64,000 nt of DNA, from NCBI GenBank assembly GCA_963817685.1, contig CAWFPN010000010.1, forward strand, positions 450,852 through 514,851, given 5' to 3'. The notes under the pieces were generated by a model. It searched no databases, was not told the DNA's origin, and saw nothing but the letters and a program-made list of their open reading frames with translations. This DNA is from an uncultured Verrucomicrobiae bacterium (GTDB lineage: Bacteria > Verrucomicrobiota > Verrucomicrobiia > Palsa-1439). This document shows, piece by piece, positions 28,855 through 49,033 of the stretch. A program made the position numbers and the translations under genes. The stretch's first letter is position 1; each line of letters begins with the position of its first letter.

Positions 28855-28872
28855 TGTTCCCAATTGGGAACA
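28855..28872. promoter_or_regulatory. ICE operator palindrome, site 1 (TGTTCCCAATTGGGAACA)
   Basis: Perfect 18-bp palindrome in the non-coding region upstream of the minus-strand 88-aa/methylase/xis/int block. Confidence 0.6.
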
Positions 28873-28957
28873 AAATCACTGATGCGTTCTTGGCGTGCAG
28901 TTGCTCCAGCGTGAAGTCTTAGAGACCAAAGCCGTTGGCGAAATGTTGAGAACGCAA

Positions 28958-29021
28958 AAATGTGGAGTTGGGCGGAAATTGGCACGATTTACGGCTTTTT
29001 CTGCCAACCAACTCCACATTT
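28958..29021. repeat. 14-bp perfect inverted repeat AAATGTGGAGTTGG ... CCAACTCCACATTT with 36-nt spacer
   Basis: Arms at 28958-28971 and 29008-29021. It shares the ATGTGGAG core with the palindrome at 29331. Confidence 0.6.
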
Positions 29022-29330
29022 ACGAAGAGGATCTGTGGGCTGTACTTTCGACCACTGGAGGCAACAGAGGCGTCGCCGAGAATGCGACGCTCCCTGATCA
29101 ACGGGCACTTGAATCCAACGGAAGGCCCTTCCCACAACGGCAAAACAGTTCGCAGCAACGGCGAGCCAAGCATTCCCTGAGAACCAGGGCCAACGCGATG
29201 GGTTGCGTGGAATCCCGCCGGAAGGCTTGCTAGGCGTTGCATAAATGTTGAGTCCGCTCGCGTGTTTGCCGCGTGACTACAGGGTCTTTCGCATCAGCTT
29301 CACATTTTTGAAAACTTAACATTTCGCCAA

Positions 29331-29350
29331 TTATGTGGAGCTCCACATAA
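29331..29350. repeat. 20-bp perfect palindrome TTATGTGGAGCTCCACATAA
   Basis: Read directly from the sequence; lies in a 1.1-kb non-coding stretch. Confidence 0.6.
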
Positions 29351-29505
29351 TAGGCGGAGCGAGCACGGTCAAGAAGCGCAAGCGGTGGACCGCAGCCCCG
29401 CGAGGAATATCTTGACGGCGCACAGCGAGCCGTAGAATCGAGGGGCGATTCACGCAAGCCGACTGAAAACACAGCGCGAATGCGCAACGGAACTGAGATT
29501 GCGAA

Positions 29506-29650
29506 AAGCGATGTGGCCGCGAGAAACGACGGCTCGCAGCGGTGACATCGGAGCGCAATCAGATCGCCAACGGCACAGCGAAAGTCTTTGGGGTTTTGCA
29601 GCGGAGCAGCGCGAAGCGGGCAGAGCGAAAAACCACAATATCTTTAGCGG
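29506..29650 (+). repeat. Structured ~145-bp repeat, copy A
   Basis: aagCGATGTGGCCG-[inner hairpin gcgag/ctcgc]-CGGTGACATCG...GAAAGTCTTTGGGGTTTTGCAGCGG...gcgaagcgg.... Aligns with copies B and C. Confidence 0.65.
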
Positions 29651-29730
29651 CCCGCACGGGTAGTGTCGATTGACGTGCTAGACGGTCCGAGATGTCGAGC
29701 GGGATGGCGCCGAGCCTGTAGCGTGTCGGG

Positions 29731-29875: not shown

Positions 29876-29916
29876 TCTCCGATTAAGAAAATAGTAGTGA
29901 GCGGCTATTTTTCCTG

Positions 29917-30488: not shown

Positions 30489-30839
30489 TTGATGGCAGAT
30501 CGCACAGTGCGAGATGTAATTGACCAAGCGATTCAAGAGAATCGCTTCGGGGAGCGGCTGCTATACGTTTTCGCATGTGGCATGTTCGGCGTTGGTATCG
30601 CGCTTATCATCCACGGGATGATTGTTGGTTCGACTACTCAAACAGTTGTTGGTGCTATAGGCACTTCAACCTTCATCCCAGCTGTGCATGTGGCGCAAAA
30701 GCTTAGACAGCAAAACATGTCCGTTCGACTACTTGAGGCTGCGTTGATGAGAGCAGACACTGCAAAAGACGCTGCTCAAGCCATTCGCGCTGCATTTACT
30801 GAACTTTTTACAAAAAACGGCGGCGCAGGCAAGAAATGA
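30489..30839 (+). CDS. Small membrane protein (2 predicted TM helices), unknown function
   Basis: 116 aa with hydrophobic segments LLYVFACGMFGVGIALIIHGMIV and TVVGAIGTSTFIPAV. Its stop overlaps the permease ATG (ATGA). Confidence 0.5.
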   Translation: MMADRTVRDVIDQAIQENRFGERLLYVFACGMFGVGIALIIHGMIVGSTTQTVVGAIGTSTFIPAVHVAQKLRQQNMSVRLLEAALMRADTAKDAAQAIRAAFTELFTKNGGAGKK

Positions 30840-33634: not shown

Positions 33635-34045
33635 TCAGACCCGTGCGCCTGCGACTGACTGCGTTTGGCGCGGCGTGATGCTGCGCATCGTCCGGCTGGC
33701 GATGGAGACCATTACCTTTTCGCGTTGATCTTCCGGCAGGTGCTTCACTAGGGTTTCGTACGCCTGCTTGAGTTCGGGGTTCTGCTCCAGCTTGCGCAGA
33801 ATGCCGTCCTTCATCTTTTGTTGCCGGTCGAGCTTGTTCACCTCGCTCAGAACGAGCGCGCGCTCCAGTCGCTCGCGTGGCATGGACTGGATGTAGCCCC
33901 AGTGCTTGGGGTTGTTCTTGATGTACTCGTCGATTCGGGCGTTGACCTTCGGGTTGTCCCGGTATTGGCCGGGCTGTTCAGTGGACTCATCTTGAGTCTT
34001 GGCTTTGCCTTTGAGCATTTGCTCTCTCCTCTGGGGATTATTCAT
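33635..34045 (-). CDS. Hypothetical ICE protein (136 aa), last gene of the T4SS block
   Basis: Charged helical protein (..NPKVNARIDEYIKNNPKHWGYIQSMPRERLERALVLSEVNKLDRQQKMKDGILRKLEQNPELKQAYE..). No family recognised. Confidence 0.5.
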   Translation of the reverse strand: MNNPQRREQMLKGKAKTQDESTEQPGQYRDNPKVNARIDEYIKNNPKHWGYIQSMPRERLERALVLSEVNKLDRQQKMKDGILRKLEQNPELKQAYETLVKHLPEDQREKVMVSIASRTMRSITPRQTQSVAGARV

Positions 34046-34057
34046 GTGGGTGAATGT

Positions 34058-34652
34058 TCACCAGTTTGGGTTTGAGGTTTCAGGTGTCCCGCTGGATGCG
34101 GGACTTTCCTTTTGCTGGTTGCGGATTTCCGTTTCCAACAAATCGAGACGCTGTTTGGTCAGGTCCAACTCCGTTTTGAGTTGGCGATTCTGCTCGGCAA
34201 CCTGCTTGCTCGCGTCCAAAGCAGTCGAAATCTGCGTAAGCGTATCGTTCAGCCGCCTCCCCTGCTCGATGACGGTCTGCGTGGCTGCCTTTTGCCGGTT
34301 GACCTCCGCGATGACTTCCGGCGTGGTCGGTCCGTCTTTGTAGGCCGGATCGATGATCTGCACTGCCGGCCCCAACGCGACGGTGGCCGGCGCGTTGGGG
34401 CGCAAGTTCCACTTGGCTGTGGTTTCCACACGGTAAACGACGTGGCGTTCGTGCATGACGAACGGCATTGTTCGGGTCAACGTACCGGCCGACGTTGTAC
34501 GCCTTGATGTTTTCGGAGTACCGCACCGACTCGATGTCGTCGCTGGGCAGAGTCGTTCCGGGAACTGGGCGCGACATGTTGAGCAGGCTCAGGTTGCGGT
34601 TCGATGCGCAAGCGGAGAGGAATAGCAGAGGGATCAGGTAGATGGTTTTCAT
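34058..34652 (-). pseudogene. T4SS-associated lipoprotein with coiled-coil C-terminus, apparently frameshifted
   Basis: Lipobox MKTIYLIPLLFLSAC...GRYVDPNN is in one frame (34080..34652 ORF). The sequence continues as MPFVMHERHVVYRVETTAKWNL... in the other (34058..34480 ORF). The junction is near 34465-34485. Confidence 0.55.
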
Positions 34653-35689
34653 GGCTCGTTGCGATGTGAAAGGCGGGGTACGATGGTTGGTGTTGACTGG
34701 TCGGTTTCGGTCGCCAGGAGTCGTGTGCCGCCGACGACTGCGTCGGACTTGTCGATGGTCTGTGTGACGTATAGGTAGAATTCTTTCCCGGCCGGCACGC
34801 GCACGTAGAATCCGTCGCGTTGGATGCTATCGAGGATTTGTTGCGCATAGGTGCCTAGGACATCCTGTGCCCCTTGCAACGGCGCATTTTGGAGTGTAGG
34901 CAACAGTTCTGTACCAACGACCGTCTGCCTCGTTTGAGTCATTGCGGAAGCAGCCCCGCTCAGGAGGGTGGCCGCGAAAAGTTTGATCTCGGCCAAGTTG
35001 TCGGTCTTTAATAGCTGCCCCCGCAAGCCGGCGCTGCCATCAGTGATGCCCCACCCTTCGCCGTCAGGGTCTTTCTCGCGGTCGAGAGCGATGCCCTGCA
35101 AATGGAGTTCCTCGCCAGTTTGCCACACCAAAGTCCAGCCGCCGTTACTGGCGATGCGTTCGCGTTTCCGATCGGCCTGGGCTGTCCCATGGACTTCAGT
35201 CCCGGCAGGGATAATGAGCCGGCCATCGTGGTAAACGTCGTCGGTGACCAACGCGATAATCGGCGTTTGGATCGAAGATGAGTCAACGGTCACGATGAGT
35301 TCGCATGAAATCAGCCGTCCGTAGGGCGCGTAGAATTTGCTCAGCGGCTTGTGCTCGGGCTCGGACGAGGGTGGTTCGGTGTAGAGACTGATGGGCGTGA
35401 AGCCCTCGTTGATTTGCTGCGCCTGCGCGCCGGTTGTTTGCGCAATCATGCCGGCGGCAGTGGTGCGAGGGGGCTTGAAGGGGACGATCTCCCGCTGGAT
35501 CGTCTGAAGAATCTGGGATGTTCTGTTGGTGTTATCAGCTAGCGTTGGCAAGGCAACCGTCTTTGGCTTGCCCTTGTTGGGGTCGTAGAACCCTTTGACG
35601 AATACAAGCGCGAAGATCAGCAGAACCACGAATGAGAGGACCACGCCGGTCGGGCTGCGCAAGAATGTGATGGCGTTGCGCGGGTTCAT
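34649..35689 (-). CDS. VirB10/TrbI-like T4SS protein
   Basis: N-terminal TM helix (VVLSFVVLLIFALVFV) and a Pro-rich linker. The C-terminal beta-barrel region reads ..LIIPAGTEVHGTAQ...GGWTLVWQ...GWGITDGSAGLRGQL... Confidence 0.6.
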   Translation of the reverse strand: MNPRNAITFLRSPTGVVLSFVVLLIFALVFVKGFYDPNKGKPKTVALPTLADNTNRTSQILQTIQREIVPFKPPRTTAAGMIAQTTGAQAQQINEGFTPISLYTEPPSSEPEHKPLSKFYAPYGRLISCELIVTVDSSSIQTPIIALVTDDVYHDGRLIIPAGTEVHGTAQADRKRERIASNGGWTLVWQTGEELHLQGIALDREKDPDGEGWGITDGSAGLRGQLLKTDNLAEIKLFAATLLSGAASAMTQTRQTVVGTELLPTLQNAPLQGAQDVLGTYAQQILDSIQRDGFYVRVPAGKEFYLYVTQTIDKSDAVVGGTRLLATETDQSTPTIVPRLSHRNEP

Positions 35690-36591
35690 TCTGACGATTT
35701 CCGTTCTGGCTGCACCAGTTGTAGCGGTGGTGCGTTCGTCTCGATGCGGTCGAGAAGCACAATGAAGTCGTTCTTCAGAGACAGGTCGTTGCGTCCGCCG
35801 TTAGGTGTTCCGGTTATGGCAAAGTAGGCGGGCGCTTCGCCGTTTGGCGGGATCGTGCCGCTAGCGTCGCTGATGGACTGCGGATAGGTGCGTTCACCGA
35901 CGCGGAGCGAAAAGCCGTCTGGCCCGTACTGAATGGGCTGGTTGGTCTTGTTGCGTAGCAGAATCCGAAAGATGAGCGTATCCTCGGGGTCGAACCGGAA
36001 AACCTCGTCGAGTTGAATCTCGTAATCCCTGAAGTCCAGGACTCGCGGGGTCTTGCTGAAGTTGATGTAGTCGACCTGGGCAACCGCGTCCGCGTGGTAC
36101 TCCTTGAGAAGCGGGTAGGCTTTCGCCTTGTCCAAGAGCGCTAGCAGCCGGTCCGGCGTGATGCGGTTTGAGCTGGGGTGGAAGTCGGCCTCGGTATCGG
36201 CGTCGGTGTCGTACTCAAAGATCACGGAGTAGAGCGGTGAGGGACTCTCAACCAATTCGATCGCGTAGGTTTTCTCGTTCCACCGAATGTTCATGTTGGT
36301 CGTGGCCCTTTCGACCAGCGCCCTCACGGACAGGAAGTATGAGCCTTTCGCGTGGGCGATTTGAAACAGTCCGGGGACTTTGGGGTCGCTGGTGACGTTA
36401 GCCGCATCAATTGCCGAGATTGGACCGGGGAAGCTGATGGTTGTCACGCGGCTGCGGGATACCGGGATTGCGTACACTGTGTGTTCGTCCAAGCGATATT
36501 CCGCAATGGGGCTGGCGTCCTTTGCGAAGCTTGACTGAAGGCAAACCAGAAGCATCGACGCGATGTGGATATGTTTAAGGAGACGTTTCAT
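35686..36591 (-). CDS. VirB9/TrbG(CagX)-like T4SS protein
   Basis: Signal peptide, then ..HTVYAIPVSRSRVTTISFPGPISAIDAANV...YFLSVRALVERATTNMNIRWNEKTYAIELVES... Position is between the VirB8-like and VirB10-like genes, with 4-nt overlaps. Confidence 0.55.
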   Translation of the reverse strand: MKRLLKHIHIASMLLVCLQSSFAKDASPIAEYRLDEHTVYAIPVSRSRVTTISFPGPISAIDAANVTSDPKVPGLFQIAHAKGSYFLSVRALVERATTNMNIRWNEKTYAIELVESPSPLYSVIFEYDTDADTEADFHPSSNRITPDRLLALLDKAKAYPLLKEYHADAVAQVDYINFSKTPRVLDFRDYEIQLDEVFRFDPEDTLIFRILLRNKTNQPIQYGPDGFSLRVGERTYPQSISDASGTIPPNGEAPAYFAITGTPNGGRNDLSLKNDFIVLLDRIETNAPPLQLVQPERKSSE

Positions 36592-37315
36592 ATTTGAAAT
36601 CGAACACAGCGGTCGGGAATCGTCCGTTCTGGACCATGTTGGGGTTGCGCTGGAACTTGAAGGCGAGCGTGAACGGGACAGCTTCGGCGAAGGCTCTGTC
36701 CTCGAAAATCCCGGTGCGAACGAGTTGCCCGGTCACCTGGGTCAGGACGAAGTTCTCGCGGGTCTGGAGGATCGTGATCTTGGCAATCTCGGCTTTCTGA
36801 TGCAATTGCTTCGCGGCAAACTCCGCTTCTTCCGAAGCGCGTTCAGCCTTGGCTTTGACCAGAGCATTCTTCAAGAACATCTGCTTCAGCAGGTCATCAT
36901 GGTCAAAGCCTTTGGGGTTGCGCTCCAGGAAGGCGACGGTGGCCAGTGTGCTTTGCTCCGCGTGGAGGTCTTTGGCTTCCTCGAATTTCAGGAGCGGCGC
37001 GACATGGTATGTGCCGGATGGATCAAGGATGACCACGCGCTCGCGTTGTTTGAACGTCTGCACCAGAATGAAACGGTCAACTGCCGCTGCTACAAGAATC
37101 AGTCCGGCAACGATGAACCAGAACCACGCGAGCCGGTCGCGATCGACGAAGATGCGGGTCGGATCGAACTTCTTGCGGGAGAGATTGGGGCGCTCGGTTT
37201 TCGGCACTGGAGTTTCTCGGAGTGTTGTCTCGGTTGCGTTCATGTTCGATGGGTTGTGGGGGTTCTTGGTCTTGCGCAGCAAGGCTTGCACGGCGTTGTC
37301 GCCGCTCACGTCCAT
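36575..37315 (-). CDS. VirB8-like T4SS protein (bitopic, NTF2-like C-domain)
   Basis: Single TM helix LAWFWFIVAGLILVAAAV followed by a ~170-aa periplasmic domain. The start is uncertain: ATG 37315, ATG 37243 or GTG 37366. The call rests on gene order and topology. Confidence 0.45.
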   Translation of the reverse strand: MDVSGDNAVQALLRKTKNPHNPSNMNATETTLRETPVPKTERPNLSRKKFDPTRIFVDRDRLAWFWFIVAGLILVAAAVDRFILVQTFKQRERVVILDPSGTYHVAPLLKFEEAKDLHAEQSTLATVAFLERNPKGFDHDDLLKQMFLKNALVKAKAERASEEAEFAAKQLHQKAEIAKITILQTRENFVLTQVTGQLVRTGIFEDRAFAEAVPFTLAFKFQRNPNMVQNGRFPTAVFDFKYETSP

Positions 37316-37359
37316 CGTGGATGGCGTTGGGTGCAGTCGCGCCGTCACTTTCTCGCTTC

Positions 37360-38382
37360 CTAGCACTCGTGTCCGCGTTGTGCATCTGTCCCAAGGCGGT
37401 GATCATCGAGCCCGTCGGCGAGTACGTGCTGCCGCTGAATGACGAACCAACCAGCGTGGCCCCGGCTGCCGTGAGACCGCCGGCGGTGGCCATCGCCGCA
37501 CCGGCCAGACCGCCACCCGTTCCGAACGTGCCGGCCGCAATGAATCCGCCGGCGATGGCGGTGGTCGCGGCGGTTGTCACGCCGCTGATAAGAGCTGCGC
37601 CGGCCTGAATGCCGTGAGTGATGACGCGTTGAATGACGACGGGCGCGGCGATGGTGCTGAAGATCAACCACACGCCGAGCGCCGCGACCCCGATGAAATT
37701 CTGGAAAGCATACCCGGCCGCCCCGCCGAGGGACTGATTCCAAAGAAAACTCTGGTCGGTCATGAAAGTGATCAACCCTCCGGTGACCAGCGATGCCGCG
37801 CCCCACCCCAGCGGCCAGAGCATGACGCCCAACGAGCGAGAGCAGATAGTTCGTGCCGATTTGGTTCAGGGCGCGGATCGCGAGAAACCCAATGAAGATC
37901 GGCGAGAGCGCGTAGCCCAGGTAGAGGATGAACTTCTGGATCAAGTACGCATAAAAAACGATCACACTGGCCAGCAAGCCGAAGATCCAGAGCAGACCCG
38001 AAATAAGCGCCTCGAAGATGGACGTGCCGGCGTTGAACAGTTTCTGCCACCAACTATTTTGAGATGTGGTGGATTTCTGAACCTGCAACGCCTGGTTGTA
38101 TTGCTGGTACACGTTGCTGGGATCGGCCTGAAGAACATTCGTCACTGTGTCGTTTGTGATCTGGGCAATTTGATTGCCCCAATTGACCAACTGCGTAAGC
38201 ACGATGATGTAAACGATGGTGCGGCCCAGTGCTCGCAGGACGGCCTCGGCGCTGTGGGGACCGGCTATCGTGGACGACACCATGCCGGTGACGAGAAACA
38301 GATACGCCACCGGCATCAGCGCCGACTGCAAGGCAGTGCAGCTCGCAGCAAAATTCGGAAAGAGGGTGTCGAAGTTGTTCAT
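37360..38382 (-). pseudogene. VirB6/TrbL-like polytopic membrane protein, apparently frameshifted
   Basis: Frame A gives MNNFDTLFP...IGTNYLLSLVG, then junk. Frame B (ORF 37077..37832) continues VMLWPLGWGAASLVTGGLITF... with more TM helices and a Gly/Ala/Thr-rich tail. The junction is at a GGG run near 37826-37832. The 3' end is also unresolved. Confidence 0.6.
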
Positions 38383-38385
38383 GGG

Positions 38386-39361: not shown

Positions 39362-39364
39362 GGC

Positions 39365-39778: not shown

Positions 39779-42504
39779 ACGGGTTCGGCTACCGGGGTTG
39801 GGTTGGCGTGACGGATGATGCCCTCGATGATGTTGCTGCTGCCACGCAGTTCCTTGGCACGCTTTTCGAAGTGTTCGCCGCTGGAACTGCTGCAATACAG
39901 CATTTCGGGTGAGGCGATGTTGTGGACCGTCCCGCAAATCGGCCGGAGCGAATCGATTTGCAGGTAGGTGAACGCGGAATACTTCTGCCCGACTTGGTGA
40001 TCGGGGAGCGGATAGTTCATCAGGGTGTGTTTCGTGATCTCTGGGATGGCGATGTCCTGCGCCATGTCGTCGATGTCCGCGCGGTCGTTCTGGCGCATCA
40101 GGAAGAATTGCCGACTGTTGCCGAACACCGCCGACCTGATGCGGCTCTGTTTGAAGCGCGCGTACTGCTGCACGATCGAGATGTTCCAGCAATTGAACTT
40201 GCGAAGCTGCGCGTAGCTCTCTTTGACGATCTCCTCCCCACCAGGGACGTCGAGGAACCGCGCGACCTCCTCGTACACGTTCCTTTTCCGCAACGCGCGG
40301 GGCAACGTGATGATGTATTTGCGCGCATCGTTGGTGATGAGGAAGCCGGCGGCAGCGCGCAATTCCTTCGCCGAGTCCGGGATGTAGCCCAGTTCGAAAT
40401 GGGCAATCTTGCCGGTCAGGGACAAGTTGGTGACACCGTCGAACAACGCGCCGTAGTTCCCATCGCGGCACCACGGTAGAAGCAGCGTGGCGATTTCGTG
40501 AATCTGGTCGCGCTCGGCACCGGACGCGTCCAGGAACATCAATTCCTGCAACATCCGGTGCGTCGGAAATTCCTCGGGCTTGACATAGGCGAACGCGAGG
40601 TTGCGCACCTCTTTACTCGTGTTGGGGTCTTTTAGGAATTTGAGGACTTCGCCTTCGTCGAACTGTTCGAGGTACGCGCGGGCTTCGTCTTCGTGCTTAG
40701 CCCTCCAGTCGCGCAGGTCGGCGAACGCTTCCAGCGTCGTTGCGCCTGGCGGCATCTTGTCGCGCCGGTAGTGGCTCAAGGTGTAGGCTTGCCGGGCGAT
40801 GGCGAGCAGTTGCTCGGAATGCCTGCGGGACCACTCTTGGAACACGTCTTCGTACAACAGGTTGATGTACTTGGCGATTTGCGCCTGCCGGAGCATCTGC
40901 TTGTCTTCGTGCTGGCTAACGCCAACCATCCGGGCGACCAAAGCGGTCGCAGAGGCAAGATGATCGGGTGTCAGCGGAAGACCTTTCGTGTCAAGGTAGT
41001 TTATGGTGATGTTGCCGTCCGGCTGGATGATGATGGGCTTGGCATCGGGATCAACCGTCTGGACGTAGATGCCGTAGGACAGCCCCTCCTCGATGATGAC
41101 TGTGTAGGCGAAGTAGCCTTCGGTCTGCGTAAGAAGATCGCAAACGGTGACGGATTTCCCGGCACCGCTCATACCGAGCAAGACGGCGTGCTGCGGCGAG
41201 ACGTTCGACGCCTGCCCTGCGAACGTTTTAATGCCGACCAGGTTGCTCGCCGATCCTTCGTAGATCGCCTCGGCGGTGTCCAGGTGACCGGTGAAGGTGG
41301 CGCAGAATGGGAGCATGTCCGCGATGTACCGGCTTTCGCCGTAAAGTTTGCGGTGCTCATAGCGTCCCCATGTCCACCCCGGCCATGTCTCGTAGAACAA
41401 CTGGCGCGACGTGCTCGGCAGCGCGCACTCGAAATACTGAGCGCTGTTCATGCTGTTGATCGCATTCTTGATCGCGCTGGTCTTGACGGACAGGCCCTCT
41501 TTCGTCTTGTCCCAGGTGCGCACGATGAATTGCGCGTGGAACGGGAGTGTATCGCCTCGTGCGAGCGCGGCGATTTTGCGCTGCTTCTTTTCCAGCACGG
41601 TCAGCAGTGACACTTTCTTTTCGCTGGCGTAGTCGCCGGCGATCCGGTCGTGTTCCTTTTCTTCCTTGAGGATCTCCTGGCGAACGGGCAGCGGGTCGAT
41701 GTTGACGGTGATCGTGTAATCGAGGAGCCTGAGATTGGTCAGCCGGCGGACCAGACCGGGATGGGTCATTTTCGGCCAGCGAGTGAGGGCGATGATGGAG
41801 TGGTAGTAGCCGTCCATCCAGAAACCGTAGTCGCGTTGCCCGTTGGCTTCGCCGTGCCAGCAATTCTCCTGGATGGACAATTCCGGGTCGAAGGCGTCGA
41901 AAATGTCGTAATCGAATCGCTCGGCCAGAGACGGATTCAGGAACATCTTGTAGTGCCGGTAATGGTCCGCATCGGTCATCGGGATGACGCGGGCGCCCTG
42001 CCCCGCGAAAATGCTGGCCAGCATCTCGTGGACTTGGGTGAACTCAGCCTGCATCTGCTCAAGCGTCATCTCGTAGAACGCCGCCAGCGCCTTGGCGGTG
42101 CTGGTGGCCTTCGGCGAGGTGTCTATCTTGCGCGAGATGTAGAGGAGGAGACGCTGGCGGCGGAGATTACGGTCCGCCATCGCCTGCCAGTAGCGCATGA
42201 ACCGCTCGTTCCGGCAGCGTTTCGTCCAGACGTTCTGCATCTTCTCGGTTTCCTGCTGGTAACGAAGCAACGGGGCGCGGTAATCCGAGTCGCAGTAAAA
42301 TTGCACCTGCAGCCGGCGCGCGTCGCCGAGCGATGCCAGGAGCAGCGTGATTTGGTCTTGGAACTCGTTCAGGTCGGAGACCTGGGCGTTGTCGAGGTCG
42401 GGTGGTTCAAAAACGAACCCCTTGGAAACGAAGCAGCCTTGCCGCAGGCCGTTGAAGACGAGCAGGTCGCGAACGAAGTAACCGTGTGGGGCGTTATCGA
42501 ACAT
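39775..42504 (-). CDS. virB4: VirB4/TrbE-family T4SS ATPase
   Basis: 909 aa with Walker A ..LLGMSGAGKSVTV... Size and position, immediately after the VirB3-like gene, are typical of the family. Confidence 0.85.
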   Translation of the reverse strand: MFDNAPHGYFVRDLLVFNGLRQGCFVSKGFVFEPPDLDNAQVSDLNEFQDQITLLLASLGDARRLQVQFYCDSDYRAPLLRYQQETEKMQNVWTKRCRNERFMRYWQAMADRNLRRQRLLLYISRKIDTSPKATSTAKALAAFYEMTLEQMQAEFTQVHEMLASIFAGQGARVIPMTDADHYRHYKMFLNPSLAERFDYDIFDAFDPELSIQENCWHGEANGQRDYGFWMDGYYHSIIALTRWPKMTHPGLVRRLTNLRLLDYTITVNIDPLPVRQEILKEEKEHDRIAGDYASEKKVSLLTVLEKKQRKIAALARGDTLPFHAQFIVRTWDKTKEGLSVKTSAIKNAINSMNSAQYFECALPSTSRQLFYETWPGWTWGRYEHRKLYGESRYIADMLPFCATFTGHLDTAEAIYEGSASNLVGIKTFAGQASNVSPQHAVLLGMSGAGKSVTVCDLLTQTEGYFAYTVIIEEGLSYGIYVQTVDPDAKPIIIQPDGNITINYLDTKGLPLTPDHLASATALVARMVGVSQHEDKQMLRQAQIAKYINLLYEDVFQEWSRRHSEQLLAIARQAYTLSHYRRDKMPPGATTLEAFADLRDWRAKHEDEARAYLEQFDEGEVLKFLKDPNTSKEVRNLAFAYVKPEEFPTHRMLQELMFLDASGAERDQIHEIATLLLPWCRDGNYGALFDGVTNLSLTGKIAHFELGYIPDSAKELRAAAGFLITNDARKYIITLPRALRKRNVYEEVARFLDVPGGEEIVKESYAQLRKFNCWNISIVQQYARFKQSRIRSAVFGNSRQFFLMRQNDRADIDDMAQDIAIPEITKHTLMNYPLPDHQVGQKYSAFTYLQIDSLRPICGTVHNIASPEMLYCSSSSGEHFEKRAKELRGSSNIIEGIIRHANPTPVAEPV

Positions 42505-42842
42505 GGTGTCCCTTGAGCGGGTGCGTGGATTGGCGGCATACGTCAGGGCCGAAGCCAGCCCCCTTGATCCATAAATCCAGACAATCCGTGTCGTAGCCGG
42601 GCGGTTTGCCCTGCCGGAAGCCGTAGACGTACACGAGTGTGAGCAGCAGCGGAACCGCCGCGATCATCAACGAGACCATGAAATGACACCTTCGCGACGC
42701 TGAAGGTGATCAACAGCGTCATGACCGATGTGAAGCAGCCGCCGGTCATGTACCAGAACAAATTCCCCTCAAGACCCCATGTCCGGCCTTTGGAGTCGTC
42801 GGCGCTGTTGGTCTCGGTGAGTCGCAGTGTTTGATTGCTCAT
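42494..42842 (-). CDS. VirB3/TrbD-like small membrane protein, split over two frames
   Basis: ORF 42543..42842 gives TM1 (..CFTSVMTLLITFSVAKV..) and ORF 42494..42679 gives TM2 (MVSLMIAAVPLLLTLVYVYGF..). This is either a frameshift near 42677-42690 or two tiny genes; an AAGGTG lies 7 nt before the second ATG. Confidence 0.45.
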
Positions 42843-43141
42843 TGGAATGTGCCCACGTCCACTGTCGAAGTGCCGATGCCGAACGCTGTGAACAGCGCCT
42901 TCACGATCACGGGCGCACCAGCAATGATGAGGCCGCCGATGATGGAGAGTTTCCCGGAATCCGTATCACCACGGCGAATCGCAAACCCGCCGCCGACGAC
43001 ACAGATTGTTCCGAAGATGAACCCGATGAGCATGACGATGCCCAGTGCGCTGCTGACTCCGCTTGTAAGAGTTGTTCCGCCGGCTGCCTGCGCGAGGATC
43101 GGGGTGAACCTGATTGTTGCTATTAAGAATCTTGTTTTCAT
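42839..43141 (-). CDS. VirB2/TrbC-like pilin
   Basis: Starting at the internal ATG 43141, the protein has a signal peptide (MKTRFLIATIRFTPILAQA) and two hydrophobic helices (..ALGIVMLIGFIFGTICVVGG.., ..IIGGLIIAGAPVIVKALF..). It is about 100 aa and is the first gene of the T4SS block. Confidence 0.6.
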   Translation of the reverse strand: MKTRFLIATIRFTPILAQAAGGTTLTSGVSSALGIVMLIGFIFGTICVVGGGFAIRRGDTDSGKLSIIGGLIIAGAPVIVKALFTAFGIGTSTVDVGTFQ

Positions 43142-43173: not shown

Positions 43174-43195
43174 GTTGTTCCCAGTTGGGAACAAC
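43174..43195. promoter_or_regulatory. ICE operator palindrome, site 2 (GTTGTTCCC-AGTT-GGGAACAAC)
   Basis: 9-bp perfect arms, 33-54 bp upstream of the pilin ATG. It sits between the divergent T4SS and Clp-like genes. Confidence 0.6.
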
Positions 43196-43320
43196 TTTCA
43201 GCGTGCAATCGGCAAGATGAGAACCCATGACAACAACGGGTTCACCAGCAAGGATCGAATGGAAAACTGCACGAACTGGAATCGCACCTCCGGCAGCGCA
43301 TTCGCGGACAGGATCACGTC

Positions 43321-44151
43321 TTGCCGCGCATTGTTTCCATTCTTCGGCGTGGCGAACTCGGGTTGACTAAGCCCGGCCGTCCACGCGGGAGTTTTCTGTT
43401 TCTCGGCCCGACTGGCGTGGGCAAAACGGAAGTCACACTGGCGTTCACCAGTTTCCTGATGAGCAAAGATCACGCGTTCCGCTTCGACATGTCGGAATAT
43501 CAAACGCAAGAGAGCTTGGGACTGCTGCTTGGCGGCAAGCTTGGTGAACGCGGGACGCTGGGGATGGTTTACGACCGCTCGAGAATAGGGACGCTGCTTT
43601 TCGATGAAATTGAGAAGGCGCATCCCCGCGTACTCGATGTCTTCCTGCAAATCCTGGACGCAGCGCGGGTGACACTGGCCAGCGGCGAGACGCTGGAGTT
43701 AAGTGGCTTCTACGTGGTGTTCACATCGAATATCGGCAGCGCCGACCTGATGAATCTGCAATACTCGACGCCAGCCACGATGGAGCGTCATGTCCTCACG
43801 CGCGCACAGCAATCAATGCGTCCCGAGTTGTACGCCCGTATTACGGAGAAGCTCGTCTTCAACCGTCTGAACTATGATCACCAATTGGAAATAGCGCAAT
43901 TGCTGTTGAATCAGGAATTGGCGTTCCTGAAGGCCAAGGGTCATGAATTGACGCCAGACGCCACGGTTCTCCCCTTTCTTGTTCGTCGCGGATTTCATCC
44001 GAAACTGGGCGCGCGTCCCATGCGCGATGCCGTTGAGAAGCTAATCGGTGACGCTGTGGCCGTGAACCTGCTTACCAGCGGTTCGGGATGTGGCTGGCTG
44101 GTCGTGGACGAGGCAGCGAATTGCTTGTTGATCAGTGGAGGCGGCCATTGA
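43321..44151 (+). CDS. Stand-alone ClpA/ClpB D2-like AAA+ ATPase (start unresolved)
   Basis: Walker A ..GSFLFLGPTGVGKTE.., Walker B ..TLLFDEIEKAHP.. and sensor region ..VVFTSNIGS... The family-typical ..LHELESHLRQRIRGQDHVLPRIV.. is in frame upstream (from 43231) but has no ATG/GTG. An ATG at 43227 is in another frame. Confidence 0.7.
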   Translation: MPRIVSILRRGELGLTKPGRPRGSFLFLGPTGVGKTEVTLAFTSFLMSKDHAFRFDMSEYQTQESLGLLLGGKLGERGTLGMVYDRSRIGTLLFDEIEKAHPRVLDVFLQILDAARVTLASGETLELSGFYVVFTSNIGSADLMNLQYSTPATMERHVLTRAQQSMRPELYARITEKLVFNRLNYDHQLEIAQLLLNQELAFLKAKGHELTPDATVLPFLVRRGFHPKLGARPMRDAVEKLIGDAVAVNLLTSGSGCGWLVVDEAANCLLISGGGH

Positions 44152-44310: not shown

Positions 44311-44353
44311 ATCGGACGATTCGAGGAAAAAATCGGACGATTATCGGACGATT
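44311..44353. repeat. Three direct copies of ATCGGACGATT
   Basis: Copies at 44311-44321, 44332-44342 and 44343-44353. They lie between two convergent genes, and the last copy touches the stop codon of the minus-strand gene. Confidence 0.6.
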
Positions 44354-45888
44354 CAAAGGCCGACCTCTTTGAGCCGGTAAGCTGCGCTACGTCCGCGTCC
44401 TGTCCTGACCAGAATTTGCTGGCCAACAAGCTCCACCAAATCGCGATGGGCGGTATCCTTGACCACATGTAAATTCTGCACACACCAACCGCTCGTGACA
44501 TGCCCTGTCTCAAGGACATGAGCGATTATTTTTTTCTGTCTTTCATTGAGCCGAGCCTCAAGGGCCGGCGTCACTATAAGCCGCGTTTCAGGCACCCGGA
44601 TGCGTTCGAGGTCATCGCCTGGCCCGGGGAAGGTGACTTGGAAATAGCCGGTGTCGCTGCCAAGCAACGGCTGGTCCAATCCGTGATTGAGCATCTGCTC
44701 GCGCATTCGACGAAACCCACTACCTCGCTCTTCGATGCGATGAAAGTAGGACAGGCACTGGGCTAAAACGGGGTTGCGGGAACAGGGTCTATATTTGCCT
44801 TTCCGCAGGCGTTCAAAAGTGATCGGGCTGGGCGGCATGCCGGGACTGGAGACGACGACCCGGTCGGCGAATACTTCGAGCATGATCTTGCGCCCCGCGT
44901 CTTCGTATTGTCGATGTGCTGCGGCATTGACCAAGGCTTCCCGCAATGCCTCGACAGGATATTCGTCCAACCGAACGCGGTTGAGGCCGACCACCTTCAT
45001 CGGGTGTCGCGTGTTGCGGTCGATGAAGGCGATGGTGCGGTCAATAGCCAACGGCATGGGGCCACGAATGTCTTCGTGGTCGCGCGGTTGGCCGTCAGGC
45101 TCCGTAGCCCGGTAAGCGTCGGCGAGGATGCGGCATTGTGGAAAAACGGCTGACGGGTCTTTCGCCAGCAGCACAATGCCAGCTGCGGTGGCGTAGTGCT
45201 CGTTTGACTCCGGGTCGTGCCAGAGGAGGCCGCGCAGCGACGCCCCAGCTAAAAGGTCAGCCGTGGAAATGTCCTCGGGGCTTCTCGCCTCAGCCGTGGC
45301 GATCAACCGGCGAATAACAGTTTGGTCGAGATTCTCCCAAGAGAGGCGTTTCATCGGCTGCGATTCGAACGTGGAGGTAGCCTCGATGGTCTGCTGTGCG
45401 ATTTCGTTCTCGTCTGAGGAAGGGGCGACGCCAAACTGTTCTTTGAGCAGCTTTACCAGGGCTGCTCGGACTTCCTTCTGCAACTCGATGACATTGCCAA
45501 AGCGCTTATACTTGTAGCCATCCGAATCCAATTCCTTCAGCAGGAGGTCCGTGCCCTCCTCACGCTTCATGTGACGCTCACCCTTGATGAAGGCCAGTAC
45601 GGGCAGTTCCCGTTCCTTGGCGCGACGGTATTCAGCATGAGTGATCGAGAGTTCGCCAAGGCGTGCACCGTATTGTACCGCGACAATGAGCAAGTAAACC
45701 TCGCAGGTATCGAGGGCTTTGAGGCATCCCTCCAGTGCCTTGTCAGGCGAGGCGGGTTCAAACTCGTACAGCACAGGAGCACAGTGAACCGCAAGGAAAG
45801 GGTCGGTGTTCAGAAGATTCTGAACGATGACCCGTTCGTCTTCCAATTCCTTTTGGACGGAACTGACGAACACTCTCAGCATGCTCAT
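44353..45888 (-). CDS. DUF4062-like N-domain fused to RecG-C-terminal-like HATPase_c_4 and winged-HTH
   Basis: N-terminus MSMLRVFVSSVQKELEDERVIV... matches the VF(I/V)SS..(D/E)L..ER pattern of DUF4062. The middle reads ..LREALVNAAAHRQYEDAGRKIMLEVFADRVVVSSPGMPP...SRNPVLAQCLSYFHRIEERGSGFRRM.. (COG2865-type). The C-terminal wHTH is ..LNERQKKIIAHVLETGHVTS... The listed ORF start at 45936 is an alternative. Confidence 0.6.
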   Translation of the reverse strand: MSMLRVFVSSVQKELEDERVIVQNLLNTDPFLAVHCAPVLYEFEPASPDKALEGCLKALDTCEVYLLIVAVQYGARLGELSITHAEYRRAKERELPVLAFIKGERHMKREEGTDLLLKELDSDGYKYKRFGNVIELQKEVRAALVKLLKEQFGVAPSSDENEIAQQTIEATSTFESQPMKRLSWENLDQTVIRRLIATAEARSPEDISTADLLAGASLRGLLWHDPESNEHYATAAGIVLLAKDPSAVFPQCRILADAYRATEPDGQPRDHEDIRGPMPLAIDRTIAFIDRNTRHPMKVVGLNRVRLDEYPVEALREALVNAAAHRQYEDAGRKIMLEVFADRVVVSSPGMPPSPITFERLRKGKYRPCSRNPVLAQCLSYFHRIEERGSGFRRMREQMLNHGLDQPLLGSDTGYFQVTFPGPGDDLERIRVPETRLIVTPALEARLNERQKKIIAHVLETGHVTSGWCVQNLHVVKDTAHRDLVELVGQQILVRTGRGRSAAYRLKEVGL

Positions 45889-45972
45889 GCTGTCCTTTGC
45901 TTCATGCCGTTTGGCTCGCATCGGGTTGAGTATCACGAAACCTGACGGGCGAATCCAGTCGATTCCAAGCTC

Positions 45973-47463
45973 TCAAAACCATCGCCTCCTAAACCAGGGC
46001 GAGACTCGGCCATCCGGTTCGATGGGCGGCAGCGTTGTTCTCTTGAAACCTCGTTCGCAGTGGACCAGAACGGCGGTATGCTTCGGCAGTGCGCGGAGAA
46101 TGTGGGGCTTGATCTTGTGTTCCTCGTGCTCGGCGTAGCTGCGATTGGCTTGGCCGCCCGAGACGCCCCACGTCTTCTTGACGACGCGCTTCTTGCCAAG
46201 GAAGTCGGCGCTCTCCTGCGCATCTTCCTCATCGGCGGCTTTGAAGATGATGCGATTACGAAGATTGAGCACAAGCACCTTCGCCTTGTCCTTGCCCAGT
46301 GCCGGCAGGAGCGACGTGGAGGATTGGGCGGCGGCAACAACGGTGGCGTTGGCTTCGCGGATCACGTCAATCGAGCTGTAGTCGCTCATGCCATCTTCGC
46401 TTGAGGTCATGAATCGTTGTGCTTCATCAGCCCAGAGGATCAGCAGATTATTCCGCTGGCGCACTGCTTTGGGCCGGTCAAACCGCCGTAAGACATGGGT
46501 GTAGAAGAGCATTTTCAGAAACGTGTTCACGTACCGGCGCTCGGTCTGGAATTTCTGAGGCATCGCCACACAAATGATCTTGCCCCGGTCAATGTCGCTG
46601 AACTCGAAGGTGTTCTTGTCGGGGCAAAAAACCTGCGCAATATCAGGCGTTAGGAAATTATGAAGGTAGTTGGCGATGGTCTCCTTCACGCCGCCCATCT
46701 GTTCGGGTGGTTGGGTGAGGTAGCGAAACCGGAGATGCTCCACGAGCGCGCGGCGGCGTTCGGTCGGATAGCCGTCTGCCAGCTCCCCTAGTGCGTCGTC
46801 GAGTTCTTCTTCGTTCAACAGGAGTTCGTGGGCGTTCTCCAACGTCACGTCGGCCTGAATTTCGTACAGCGCCTCCAAGGCGTGCGCGATATGCGTCTGC
46901 GCCTGGCTCTTGAAGAATCCCTTGTCGCCCTGCTGGCCAAGACTGGCGGCGGTATCCACGACGAATTTGGCGAACGTGCTGAATGGGACGCTGCTGTCGG
47001 AAGTCAGGTTGTAGGTATGCGTGGGTTTCCAACTGAGGGGCGCATTGTCGGGTCGGACTTGGAGCAGGATCAAATCGTTCTGGCGGTTGAAATACCGGGC
47101 CATCTCCGAGAGCGTTTCCCAATAGATGCCTTTGTCATCAATGCAGAGCCCGCCCCAGTTCGGTTCGTTCTGGAAGACCTGGTACAGGAGTGGTGTGATG
47201 CCGGACCGTGTTTTCCCGGAGCCGGTGTCGCCTGTAATCAGCCAGCCACGACAGAAATCTTCCCGCGTCCACGTCAGCCCCTTCAATCGCACGATCGGAC
47301 GATGGCTCGTGCGAAGAGAAGTGGCAGTCGCGAAGGCGGCAAGAATCCCAAAGGCCCCGGCGAACACCCACGAGAACGGTGGGGCTTGGCTCAGGAGAAA
47401 GTACGCACACGCGGCAAGCGACAAGCCGGCGATTGTGAATCCGAGACACCGTGCTTTGCTCAC
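45973..47463 (-). CDS. virD4: VirD4/TraG-family type IV coupling protein
   Basis: Two N-terminal TM helices and Walker A ..LITGDTGSGKTRSG... Further motifs: ..LILWADEAQRF.. and ..VVAAAQSSTSL... Confidence 0.8.
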   Translation of the reverse strand: MSKARCLGFTIAGLSLAACAYFLLSQAPPFSWVFAGAFGILAAFATATSLRTSHRPIVRLKGLTWTREDFCRGWLITGDTGSGKTRSGITPLLYQVFQNEPNWGGLCIDDKGIYWETLSEMARYFNRQNDLILLQVRPDNAPLSWKPTHTYNLTSDSSVPFSTFAKFVVDTAASLGQQGDKGFFKSQAQTHIAHALEALYEIQADVTLENAHELLLNEEELDDALGELADGYPTERRRALVEHLRFRYLTQPPEQMGGVKETIANYLHNFLTPDIAQVFCPDKNTFEFSDIDRGKIICVAMPQKFQTERRYVNTFLKMLFYTHVLRRFDRPKAVRQRNNLLILWADEAQRFMTSSEDGMSDYSSIDVIREANATVVAAAQSSTSLLPALGKDKAKVLVLNLRNRIIFKAADEEDAQESADFLGKKRVVKKTWGVSGGQANRSYAEHEEHKIKPHILRALPKHTAVLVHCERGFKRTTLPPIEPDGRVSPWFRRRWF

Positions 47464-47822
47464 CGTACTAGCCTCCCGATGAGGACGCCCGCCAGCAGCG
47501 CCAACGCCGCAGTGAATACCAGGGCAAAAACAGGAAAACGGTTCAGGTCGCTCCTGATCTTCGGCACGGCCCGTAACTCCTCAATGATCTCGCCGGCTCG
47601 TCCCGTGAAGTCGCCGCAGAGCCTCTCCAACTGCTCCATCGTGCTACGGAAGTCTTCAAACGACGGGGGTCGTTCCTTCGGTTCGTTCAGTTTGGCGTGG
47701 GTGAAGTAGATTTCCCACAATTCCACAGCGGCCAGCATCGGATCGCCGTCCTGAACACTGTACTTCTTCCGCCATTCCAGAATGGCGTCTTTCAGCGCCT
47801 GTTTTGGGTCGGCTTCGCTCAT
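47460..47822 (-). CDS. Hypothetical protein with C-terminal TM anchor (120 aa)
   Basis: Soluble helical N-domain and C-terminal FPVFALVFTAALALLAGVLIG. It has 4-nt overlaps with both neighbours. Confidence 0.5.
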   Translation of the reverse strand: MSEADPKQALKDAILEWRKKYSVQDGDPMLAAVELWEIYFTHAKLNEPKERPPSFEDFRSTMEQLERLCGDFTGRAGEIIEELRAVPKIRSDLNRFPVFALVFTAALALLAGVLIGRLVR

Positions 47823-48518
47823 GGCTCACTCGGCAAAATGATCTGACGGACGGAGTCGATTTGTTCGTGGAACTGCCGCTGCCAGTTCTTGAGCCGCTGG
47901 CGGTCCATGAGGGAGAATTTCTGGTACTGAATCCCCTGCCCGACCGGCAGATTCGCCTGCTGTAGCAGCGCGACCAACCAGTCATGGAGTTTGGGCATAA
48001 TCATTTCTTTGGCAGCCAGTTCGTTCAGCAATCGTTTCCGCGTCTTGCTGGTGTCGTAAATCGTGAAGTGCTCCGTCAAGGCTTGGTTCTTCACCACCAG
48101 ATAGCGGCAGCGGTTGTTGAATGCCTTCGCGATGAAGCTGATTTGTTCCACGCTGTCGAGATCGTGATTCACCGGCGACACCACCGTCAGGGCGGCGCCC
48201 ATTCTGTTGAGAACATCGAAGACACGTCAACTCGGCAAAGTAGTTCAGGAACACGTCCGTTGAGGCGGCTCGGCAATCCACGACCACGAGGTGGGCGCTT
48301 TCGACGGCCGCAACCAGTTTGTCGAGTTCCCGCAGATTAGCCAGATTCACGAACCGGGCATCCGGGTGAAAACGTTTCAGGGTCGAATTCTCGTTGTCCG
48401 TGTCGATGGCGACATGGGGCATTTGCTGGTCTTTGAGGTACTGAACGAAATTCGCGGTAAAGAAGCTTTTCCCAACTCCACCCTTGCCGTTGAGAACGAG
48501 ATTGATCTGCTTTTGCAT
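47819..48518 (-). pseudogene. parA: ParA/MinD-family ATPase, apparently frameshifted
   Basis: Deviant Walker A ..LNGKGGVGKS.. in ORF 47982..48518 reads well to ..STDVFLNYFAEL. The sequence continues in ORF 47819..48202 as (VFDVLNR)MGAALTVVSPVNHDLDSVEQISF.... The junction is near 48221-48230. Confidence 0.65.
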
Positions 48519-48520
48519 GG

Positions 48521-48907
48521 CTAGATGGTATTGGGGTCAGCAATGCGCGGCCCACGGCGTTCCTTGCTGGCTGGCACCGCGCGGTTGCCTGTGTTGCGGA
48601 TCTGAGGCCGGCTGTGCGCCTCGTGAGACATCGGCTTACCAGCGGCTTTACGGGGTTGCCCACGCCGTCGTTTTGACTTCGAGACACGAAGGCAAAACTG
48701 TCTGACGGTCACGTGTGAGACCGGTACATCGATATTACGCAAGATTTCCGCGATGGTCCTGTACGAAGCGCGCTTACGCCGAAGTTCCAGAATGCCTTCC
48801 TTAAGGGAGAGAAGTTTCTTCCATTTGGCTGACACTCGTGGAACGTAGTTCTTAACTGCCTCGGCCAATCGGCGTTCCACCAAATCGGACGGTGAAGCGT
48901 CATTCAT
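48521..48907 (-). CDS. Putative DNA-binding protein (relaxosome accessory or regulator)
   Basis: 128 aa with an HTH-like ..ASYRTIAEILRNIDVPVSHVTVRQF.. and a basic tail. It is divergent from the relaxase. The function is inferred from position only. Confidence 0.35.
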   Translation of the reverse strand: MNDASPSDLVERRLAEAVKNYVPRVSAKWKKLLSLKEGILELRRKRASYRTIAEILRNIDVPVSHVTVRQFCLRVSKSKRRRGQPRKAAGKPMSHEAHSRPQIRNTGNRAVPASKERRGPRIADPNTI

Positions 48908-49015
48908 GGTAACAGTTTCCTACCATACGGAGGTCCGAAAACTTCTAGCGTGAGCTAGGGGTCGGGCGTGCCATCTTTCCATGCGCTGGAGTAAAGCGCA
49001 TTCCCCGCAACAATC

Positions 49016-49033
49016 TGTTCCCGTTTGGGAACA
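49016..49033. promoter_or_regulatory. ICE operator palindrome, site 3 (TGTTCCC-GTTT-GGGAACA)
   Basis: Lies in the 140-bp gap between the divergent relaxase and accessory/ParA/T4CP genes, 33-50 bp upstream of the likely relaxase ATG (49066). Confidence 0.6.

Follow-up and report, generated by a model that had tools for sequence, protein, structure and literature searches.

The stretch of DNA analysed here (hereafter the window) comprises 64,000 nucleotides from an uncultured Verrucomicrobiae bacterium (assembly GCA_963817685.1, contig CAWFPN010000010.1, positions 450,852 to 514,851 of the forward strand) and carries an integrative and conjugative element (ICE) with genes for an integrase, a type IV secretion system (T4SS), a relaxase and a type IV coupling protein (T4CP). 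An earlier note on this DNA, made by reading the sequence, had reported the palindrome TGTTCCC-N4-GGGAACA in three control regions of the element and had proposed that a single dimeric repressor or activator switches the whole transfer regulon through it. Here we describe the distribution of this palindrome in the window and in related elements, the promoters at which it stands, and the proteins that might bind it. The most probable binder appears to be XRE1, a small XRE-family protein encoded by the element itself (Table 1).

The three copies were borne out by an exhaustive search of the window at 0-2 mismatches. The pattern TGTTCCCNNNNGGGAACA has exactly three matches, numbered sites 1 to 3 in Table 1, with 4-bp spacers of AATT, AGTT and GTTT, respectively, and the arms of site 2 do extend to 9 bp as had been claimed. 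Tolerance of up to two mismatches adds no further match, the chance expectation from dinucleotide-preserving shuffles being 0.00 exact matches and 0.34 matches at up to two mismatches. A looser scan of the window (up to four mismatches in a 20-bp frame) revealed no other convincing copy, and none is present in the 32 kb that do not belong to the element.

Site 1 lies upstream of the methylase/helicase, xis-like and integrase genes, its centre being 90 bp from the ATG of the first of these. The separate 88-aa gene that had been placed at the head of this block is not supported, as the corresponding open reading frame (ORF; 28449-28715) is out of frame within the 1712-aa methylase/helicase gene. 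Site 2 stands midway between two divergent transcription units; its centre is separated by 43 bp from the start codon of the pilin gene (ATG at 43141) and by 42.5 bp from an ATG on the Clp side (43227). According to Pfam, the T4SS operon encodes a TrbC/VirB2-like pilin, a VirB4/TraC-like ATPase and TrbL/VirB6-like, CagX/VirB9-like and TrbI/VirB10-like proteins, together with small ORFs lacking an assignment. The Clp-like domain (domain start 43231) is in another frame than the ATG at 43227, which points to a frameshift in the first codons, and intact Clp-like orthologues start 41.5 bp from their palindrome (e.g., in related locus L062). Site 3 is located between the relaxase gene and a divergent operon headed by a gene for a 128-aa helix-turn-helix (HTH) protein (48521-48907), as had been described, but it does not appear to serve the latter, whose ATG is 117 bp from the site centre and which is preceded by a palindrome of its own. 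There is no TGTTCCC palindrome at promoter distance ahead of the 128-aa operon.

Table 1. Operator sites, candidate promoter elements and associated genes of the element (window coordinates)
Feature	Position	Strand	Basis or remark
Operator site 1, TGTTCCC AATT GGGAACA	28855-28872		Exact match; ahead of methylase/helicase-xis-int operon on the minus strand
Putative target operon 1 (methylase/helicase, xis-like gene, integrase)	22096-28773	-	ORFs and Pfam
Methyltransferase and SNF2-type helicase gene, 1712 aa	23635-28773	-	ORFs and Pfam
HTH_17 xis-like gene	23307-23633	-	ORFs and Pfam
Tyrosine integrase gene	22096-23310	-	ORFs and Pfam
-10-like hexamer TAAATC, about 30 bp from site 1 centre	28828-28833	-	Tentative; palindrome-to-(-10) spacing as at other promoters
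Operator site 2, 9-bp arms	43174-43195 (core 43176-43193)		Midway between divergent pilin/T4SS and Clp-like genes
Putative target operon 2, pilin-led T4SS	33635-43141	-	Pfam
-10-like hexamer TACAAC, -14 to -9 of pilin start codon	43150-43155	-	Sequence reading
Putative target gene 3, ClpB-D2-like AAA+ protein	43227-44151	+	ORF and Pfam
Operator site 3	49016-49033		Centre 41 bp ahead of relaxase start codon (ATG at 49066)
-10-like hexamer TATCCG, -12 to -7 of relaxase ATG	49054-49059	+	-10 consensus of 77 loci
Putative target operon 4 (relaxase and small120; transcription possibly continuing into the response regulator and XRE genes)	49066-52202	+	Pfam, tblastn and alignment
TrwC-type (MOBF) relaxase gene	49066-51696	+	Pfam
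small120, conserved small protein, frameshifted in the window	51824-52202	+	tblastn and alignment
REC and GerE (LuxR-type) response regulator (RR)	52287-52994	+	Pfam; adjoins XRE1, possibly an input
XRE1, XRE-family protein, 104 aa	53266-53580	+	AlphaFold2, Foldseek and covariation; proposed operator binder
Operon of 128-aa HTH protein, ParA-like protein, two small proteins, T4CP and DUF4062-HATPase_c_4-HTH protein	44353-48907	-	Pfam
Separate palindrome CTAGC GTGA GCTAG followed by GGGGTCGGGCGT block	48945-48958 (with block to 48971)		43-44 bp ahead of 128-aa start codon

Operator classes in related elements

A relaxase scan of the genome collection identified 295 relatives, the best 80 of which (L001-L080) come almost entirely from metagenome-assembled genomes of Verrucomicrobiota, often with several per genome. 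The motif scan of related elements that the earlier note had suggested was carried out on a comparative set consisting of the window and 182 related loci (2.18 Mb fetched), in which 63 palindrome sites were detected: 29 with inner CC (TGTTCCC; CC class), 34 with inner GC (TGTTCGC; GC class) and none with mixed arms. All 63 copies occur in the context of ICEs or of integrative and mobilizable elements (IMEs). For 54 of them an ORF of 60 aa or more starts 41-46 bp from the centre, with centre-to-start distances of 41 bp at 19 sites, 42 bp at 12, 43 bp at 16, 45 bp at 3 and 46 bp at 5. Start codons at 41-43 bp belong to the genes for the relaxase, the pilin, the Clp-like protein and an HTH_17 protein designated xis75, and an XRE paralogue (XRE2) starts at 45 bp. 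In L001-L017 the palindrome begins 50-51 bp ahead of the relaxase start codon and reads either TGTTCCC-N4-GGGAACA or TGTTCGC-N4-GCGAACA. In relatives it is also found 42-43 bp ahead of xis75, the first gene of a module containing xis75, a gene for a 216-aa protein, a second xis-like gene and int; the window has no xis75 gene, and site 1 precedes the methylase-xis-int operon instead. The same motif is thus present upstream of several operons for transfer, excision and integration in the window plus its relatives, namely at the relaxase, pilin/Clp, xis75 and XRE2 promoters.

Within one element every copy belongs to the same class, with the sole exception of L028, which has one of each. More distant lineages, examined as relaxase-centred loci, possess other palindromes at the identical position ahead of the relaxase gene, including GCTCC-N6-GGAGC, TTGCGC-N8-GCGCAA, TGTGTA-N-TACACA, TTGTCCGC-N4-GCGGACAA and TTGTAATGA-N2-TCATTACAA. 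The palindrome in the pilin/Clp intergenic region is of the same type as the element's own relaxase palindrome in the window and in L003, L039, L053 and L062, and is a hybrid in L046. Considering that both arms, and also separate sites, have changed in a coordinated manner in each lineage, these palindromes are likely recognized by a trans-acting dimeric regulator encoded by each element. The comparison supports the view that the palindrome is a real regulatory site at promoters for excision, mating-pore synthesis and DNA processing.

The proposal of a single dimeric regulator acting on one shared operator is strengthened by the fixed position, the two symmetric classes and the concerted turnover of the sites. 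Its extension to the whole transfer regulon does not hold, because the 128-aa/ParA/T4CP operon has its own palindrome. From the positions of the sites, the TGTTCCC regulon would comprise the excision/integration genes, the mating pore with the Clp-like gene, and the relaxase operon, and the T4CP operon is not obviously included. The CTAGC-N4-GCTAG palindrome marks the limit of this regulon. It is kept, together with the GGGGTCGGGCGT block, in L001-L016, with compensatory changes to CTAAC/GTTAG arms in L003 and L014, and the G-rich GGGGTCGGGCGT block is also present in lineages whose relaxases are only 55-60% identical. The palindrome and block together are a candidate either for the origin of transfer (oriT), as inverted repeat plus nic region, or for an operator of the 128-aa protein.

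A group of compact elements (L019-L022, L028, and L035) lacks the T4SS, and no match to XRE or to the RR was found in them. Their gene order is int, palindrome, HTH_17 gene, gene for a 206-aa protein, second HTH_17 gene, 128-aa-like gene, ParA-like gene, relaxase gene and a gene for a small protein, so that the palindrome is 3-4 kb from the relaxase gene. A CC- or GC-class site heads this single xis-mob operon, and L028 has both classes 109 bp apart (6303-6320 and 6412-6429) ahead of the xis-like gene; only the GC-class copy there is at promoter distance (46 bp). Having no regulator of their own, such mobilizable elements would always be on if the regulator were a repressor, and would be silent until a helper element is active if it were an activator. 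Their operators suggest that they would respond in trans to the regulator of a helper.

Promoter geometry and candidate regulators

Alignment of 77 non-redundant relaxase upstream regions on the start codon reveals T at -13 in 41 regions (or at -12 in 28), A at -12 in 40, A at -11 in 43, and T at -8 in 43, i.e., a TAnnnT box 8-13 bp ahead of the start codon. A -10 box in this position implies that the mRNAs are leaderless or nearly so. The -10-like hexamers of the window are listed in Table 1; if TAAATC is the -10 element of operon 1, the methylase mRNA would have a leader of about 48 nt. The transcription starts predicted in this way would put the operator centre at about -41.5 to -43.5, a placement typical of class-II activator sites. 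No resemblance to TTGACA was observed at the expected -35 position, and a consensus scan for a sigma-70 promoter around site 1 did not find any. We also considered whether the right arm could itself be a sigma-70 -35 element or a GGAAC -35 element of the extracytoplasmic function type, and rejected both because the spacer to the -10-like element (19-20 bp) is too long. Internal genes of the operons are without a Shine-Dalgarno motif, which, together with the apparently leaderless first genes, suggests that initiation in these bacteria may be generally independent of this motif. The combination of an operator near -42 with a -10 box at 8-13 bp from the start codon may give a hint on how transcription and translation are initiated in this phylum.

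Three proteins of the element had been named as candidate binders in the earlier note: the XRE protein (XRE1), the RR and the 128-aa HTH protein. Only the recognition helix of XRE1 covaries with the operator class. In an AlphaFold2 model of XRE1 (predicted local distance difference test score 84), helices span residues 8-18, 22-31, 38-45 and 56-63. Residues 38-45 form the third (recognition) helix of the model, and residue 42 (Ala in the window) is located at helix position 5, a base-contacting position in the XRE/cI family. Foldseek matches to the model include C.AhdI (root-mean-square deviation 1.2 A over 65 residues, target TM-score 0.80), P22 c2, 434, lambda cI and SinR, and a profile search against PDB sequences detected C.AhdI at E=5e-4. 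XRE1 stays below the Pfam cut-off (HTH_31, 17 bits vs 27, E=0.007), as a divergent member of its family would. The model thus predicts that XRE1 is structurally a protein of the XRE/cI family with a five-helix HTH fold.

The residue preceding the K-I-E motif in this helix is Ala, or Gly in L011, in nine elements (window, L001, L002, L003, L014, L011, L170, L177 and L182), and all nine have CC-class operators. Ser occupies position 42 in five elements, four of which are of the GC class (L161, L163, L164 and L167) and one of the CC class (L178). The association between residue and operator class is significant by Fisher's test (p=0.005, phylogeny not corrected for). The helices of L170 and L161 (DRVAVAKIES with CC and DRVAVSKIES with GC) differ by this change from Ala to Ser alone. 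Each site consists of 7-bp arms with their centres 11 bp apart, as would suit a dimer on half-sites one helical turn apart, and the residue in question covaries with arm position 6. When identities within and between classes were compared for the gene families of these elements, only the XRE family and small120 were flagged. The GC class is found in three relaxase lineages and the CC class in three, which indicates that operator class follows XRE1 rather than the relaxase tree.

The wider family points in the same direction. A scan of metagenomes with XRE2-like proteins showed that 52 of the 81 distinct genes are closely preceded by palindromes with G[C/T]TC[C/G] half-sites. Helices of the type ..LSKIEAQ accompany GCTCC-N6-GGAGC (approximately 40 loci), ..LAKIETQ accompanies GTTCGG-AATT-CCGAAC (11 loci), and members with a TRVTLAK helix accompany GTTCC-N6-GGAAC. 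Judging from these pairs, the wider XRE family evidently reads palindromes of the kind present in the window. Among the metagenome loci L081-L160, many chromosomal and element-borne XRE-family genes have two tandem operators 46 bp apart, the proximal of which overlaps the start codon (e.g., AAGCTCCATTTTTGGAGCATG), a clear autorepression layout on a leaderless gene. Scans of viral contigs with the RR and XRE1 gave no matches.

Upstream of XRE1 itself (110-180 bp, approximately positions 53090-53160), we observed a conserved non-coding block, TTGACCTACACGAGAATCTTC...GTCATGACGGATTTCG, with a short ORF starting MTDFVRR. The block recurs ahead of XRE1 in L173, L175, L177 and L011, and it may be the XRE1 promoter or encode a leader peptide.

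Taken together, we consider it probable that XRE1 is the operator-binding regulator of the three promoter regions, although several observations weigh against this view or against parts of it. In L178, an S-type XRE1 occurs alongside a CC-class operator. The relaxase and small protein of L178 share 95-97% identity with those of a CC lineage, and its RR is common to both classes, so that L178 would be either a recombinant or a chimeric short-read contig. The S-type XRE1 proteins look like a single clade, implying few independent events, and a second column of XRE1, outside the HTH, separates the two classes equally well. We could not find XRE1 in the visible 22 kb of the GC-class loci L012, L013, L015 and L017. 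The first three of these have only the paralogue XRE2, which has Ala at the helix position concerned and an imperfect GC-class site 45 bp before its start. In L106, L122, L139 and L152, the two tandem operators of the paralogue differ from the palindrome ahead of the relaxase gene, and hence the XRE assignment is not extended to distant lineages. There is no operator copy ahead of the XRE1 gene, so that read-through from site 3 would be its only route to autoregulation. A distance of 90 bp, instead of 42 bp, separates site 1 from the ATG of its gene. For the sign of regulation, finally, the only indications are the geometry, the weakness of the -35 regions and the situation of the mobilizable elements.

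Some of these observations would be expected if the proposed operator and regulon are correct but some other protein, encoded by the element or the host, does the binding, the correlation in XRE1 reflecting hitch-hiking of a linked gene. The single S-type clade, the second discriminating column, L178 and the distant lineages could all be accommodated in this way, and so could the absence of XRE1 from the visible flanks not only of the four GC-class loci but also of the T4SS-bearing L046, L053 and L062. We regard this alternative as rather improbable, given that the discriminating residue resides in the recognition helix, that the same position follows the half-site across the wider family, and that linkage alone does not explain the difference in XRE1, the two classes sharing about 95% identity in the RR encoded directly upstream. 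Moreover, no other DNA-binding protein examined (128-aa protein, xis75, small120, ParA, T4CP, and RR) follows the operator class.

The individual comparisons are as follows. The 128-aa HTH protein, one of the candidates named previously, does not covary with operator class: its helix varies (SHV, SRT, SCR, and ASD) under the same operator, and the helix SHDTVARFC is shared under quite different palindromes. For xis75, the HTH is identical in the CC and GC classes and the window is without such a gene. The small120 protein is nearly universal and has no Pfam match; no segment of it follows the class, and that of L013 (GC) resembles those of L003 and L011 (CC). Between classes, identities of 80-93% were obtained for ParA, the two small proteins and the T4CP, which were therefore rejected as determinants of specificity.

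The LuxR-type RR had also been named as a candidate, and such a protein could bind the palindrome as a phosphorylated dimer that activates the regulon. The architecture (REC and GerE), the location of the gene in or after the relaxase operon, and the 7-4-7 palindrome at position -42 would suit an activator of the LuxR family, in which NarL/SsrB-type regulators bind 7-N-7 palindromes. However, the GerE HTH is identical in CC-class (L001, L016, and L170) and GC-class elements (L161 and L164), and the whole RR of L161 and L164 (GC) is approximately 95% identical to that of L014 and L016 (CC). No GerE column separates the classes in an alignment of nine CC and four GC sequences. In addition, the visible parts of L012, L013, L015 and L017 lack the RR, as do the mobilizable elements and most other lineages in which the palindrome is retained. 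A role of the RR as the class-specific binder therefore appears quite unlikely.

Still less likely is the possibility that the palindromes are DNA hairpins recognized by the MOBF relaxase, i.e., inverted repeats of the oriT type. One copy adjoins the relaxase gene, the usual place of oriT, compensatory changes keep the arms complementary, and the predicted DNA hairpins are moderately stable (-6 to -9 kcal/mol). On the other hand, the palindrome is present three times, and each time an unrelated gene starts at a set distance from it; the flanks are not conserved and share no common nic-like sequence. The site of the mobilizable elements precedes the whole operon, 3-4 kb away from the relaxase gene, and the operator class follows XRE1 across three relaxase lineages. 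The CTAGC-N4-GCTAG palindrome with its G-rich block, 60 bp away, is a better oriT candidate. That the sites are chance matches or a genome-wide extragenic repeat is hardly conceivable, with 0.00 copies expected, none in the 32 kb outside the element, and all 63 copies in ICE or IME contexts, 54 of them at promoter distance.

We therefore return to XRE1, for which the following mechanism may be proposed. The palindrome would be the operator of an element-encoded regulator, most probably XRE1, a dimer of which would place one recognition helix on each 7-bp arm. The methylase-xis-int promoter, the divergent promoters of the pilin/T4SS operon and the Clp-like gene, and that of the relaxase operon would be switched together, such that excision, synthesis of the mating pore and DNA processing are coupled, and the T4CP/ParA operon would be under a separate control site. 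XRE1 would act as a class-II-type activator at about -42 or, otherwise, as a repressor occluding the -35 region. At least two orthogonal operator classes (TGTTCCC and TGTTCGC) would exist, tracking the Ala/Ser change in the XRE recognition helix.

With regard to the direction of regulation, we lean somewhat towards a class-II-type activator, because of the fixed spacing, the missing -35 box and the logic of the mobilizable elements. Repression by covering the -35 region is a serious alternative that fits the geometry as well. XRE-type proteins encoded by mobile elements more frequently act as repressors, and the XRE paralogues have operators that overlap their own start sites. A more far-reaching version of the model, in which the single Ala/Ser switch defines "heteroimmune" classes that are co-resident in genomes, the XRE protein is a class-II activator of leaderless promoters devoid of a -35 element, and IMEs answer whichever helper is present, is offered as speculation.

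Other palindromes and features of the element

Several further palindromes were observed. A chromosomal paralogue of the LuxR-type RR (10685-11461) is preceded by the perfect palindrome GAATCGC TGAAA GCGATTC (11469-11487; 0.03 expected), 40 bp before its start. The same 7-mers occur everted, as AGCGATTC AAGA GAATCGCT, inside the element at 30527-30546, near the start of the ORF preceding a permease gene. The GAATCGC/GCGATTC palindrome may be a box of LuxR-type regulators. Another perfect palindrome, GTTCAG AATCTT CTGAAC (45808-45825), lies in the 5' coding part of the DUF4062-HTH gene and is kept in L001 and L014 (6781); its half-site resembles those of the XRE family. To the right of site 1 there are about 5 kb of poorly coding DNA and the permease gene, followed by the T4SS operon. 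This gene-poor DNA contains two inverted repeats (28958-29021 and 29325-29356) with the common core ATGTGGAG/CTCCACAT, one having 14-bp arms 36 nt apart and the other being a 32-bp palindrome without a spacer. A role as terminator, recombination site or further operator is conceivable. An Rfam search gave no match.

Large RHS/YD-repeat toxin-like genes flank the element on both sides (16882-21879 and 54891-61970). No direct repeats of at least 11 bp that could represent attachment (att) repeats, and so mark the right end of the element, were detected between 21.7-22.2 kb and 53.4-55.1 kb. In addition to the apparent frameshift in the Clp-like gene, small120 is split into two frames (51824-52202) and a 190-aa ORF of the T4SS operon (34080-34652) runs into low-complexity sequence. 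Either assembly indels or an early stage of decay of the element could account for these disruptions.

Comparison with known systems

The arrangement resembles those controlled by SetCD in SXT/R391 elements and by AcaCD in IncC plasmids, in that one box occurs at several transfer promoters and operator-bearing mobilizable elements exist. In these systems, one motif is present at the xis/int, mating-pore and DNA-processing promoters, the boxes abut or overlap a -35 region without consensus, divergent promoters share a control region, and unrelated mobilizable islands (MGIs, SGI1) carry the same boxes and are triggered in trans (PMC4344509, PMC4207636). SetCD and AcaCD are FlhDC-like heteromers that act on a 19-bp non-palindromic box, whereas the operator here is a perfect palindrome and the candidate is a 104-aa protein of the XRE type. 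The host phylum, the T4SS type and the MOBF relaxase are also different, and no FlhC or FlhD domain was found in the element ORFs scanned with Pfam.

A second likeness is to the tra boxes of TraR, since both are 18-bp palindromes, with a predicted position of about -42 in the present element. In Agrobacterium Ti plasmids, the 18-bp tra box is centred approximately 42-45 bp ahead of the transcription start, and one box serves both divergent tra operons, on the relaxase and T4CP sides; further boxes precede the trb/T4SS operon. However, TraR is a LuxR-type quorum-sensing activator, while the LuxR-type protein of the present element has a receiver domain and no autoinducer-binding domain, and shows no covariation between its HTH and the operator.

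The five-helix HTH fold predicted for XRE1 is that of lambda cI, P22 c2, 434, C.AhdI and C.Esp1396I, and phage repressors and controller proteins are its nearest relatives among solved structures. Proteins of the group that includes lambda cI (at PRM) and the controllers of restriction-modification systems bind palindromes as dimers, and some activate from about -42 through contact with sigma and repress elsewhere; in systems of the phage-repressor type, classes of operator/repressor specificity define immunity groups. The phage repressors and controller proteins serve lysogeny or the timing of restriction-modification and have autoregulatory sites, whereas the proposed XRE1 sites are at conjugation and excision promoters.

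If XRE1 is a repressor, the more appropriate model would be KorA/KorB/TrbA of RP4, KorA/ArdK/StbA of R388 or ImmR of ICEBs1, where element-encoded regulators likewise act on short palindromes at most backbone promoters. KorB is ParB-like and KorA belongs to another HTH family, however, and repressors do not require the fixed position near -42 that is predicted here. Unlike the ImmR/ImmA pair of ICEBs1, XRE1 has no Peptidase_M78 protease next to it in the window. The GC-class locus L013 does carry genes for an ImmR-like XRE protein and an ImmA-like (Peptidase_M78) protein (16301-17397), divergent from the xis75 promoter, and the ImmR-like gene has a separate palindrome, TGTTGACTATTTACTCAACA, i.e., an ICEBs1-like module on top of the shared operator.

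A literature search on conjugative elements of Verrucomicrobiota yielded survey papers only and no experimental work, and this element family is abundant in peat and soil genomes. Control of all transfer promoters through one regulator box has precedents in the SXT/IncC, Ti-plasmid and IncP/IncW systems. What goes beyond the ordinary is the combination of two apparently orthogonal operator classes tied to one helix residue, an apparently leaderless promoter design, and operator-bearing mobilizable elements. The analysis provides a regulatory map with three promoters, one operator, one candidate regulator and one residue predicted to set specificity, and the operator classes suggest a way in which co-resident elements might escape cross-talk and mobilizable elements might synchronize excision with a helper.

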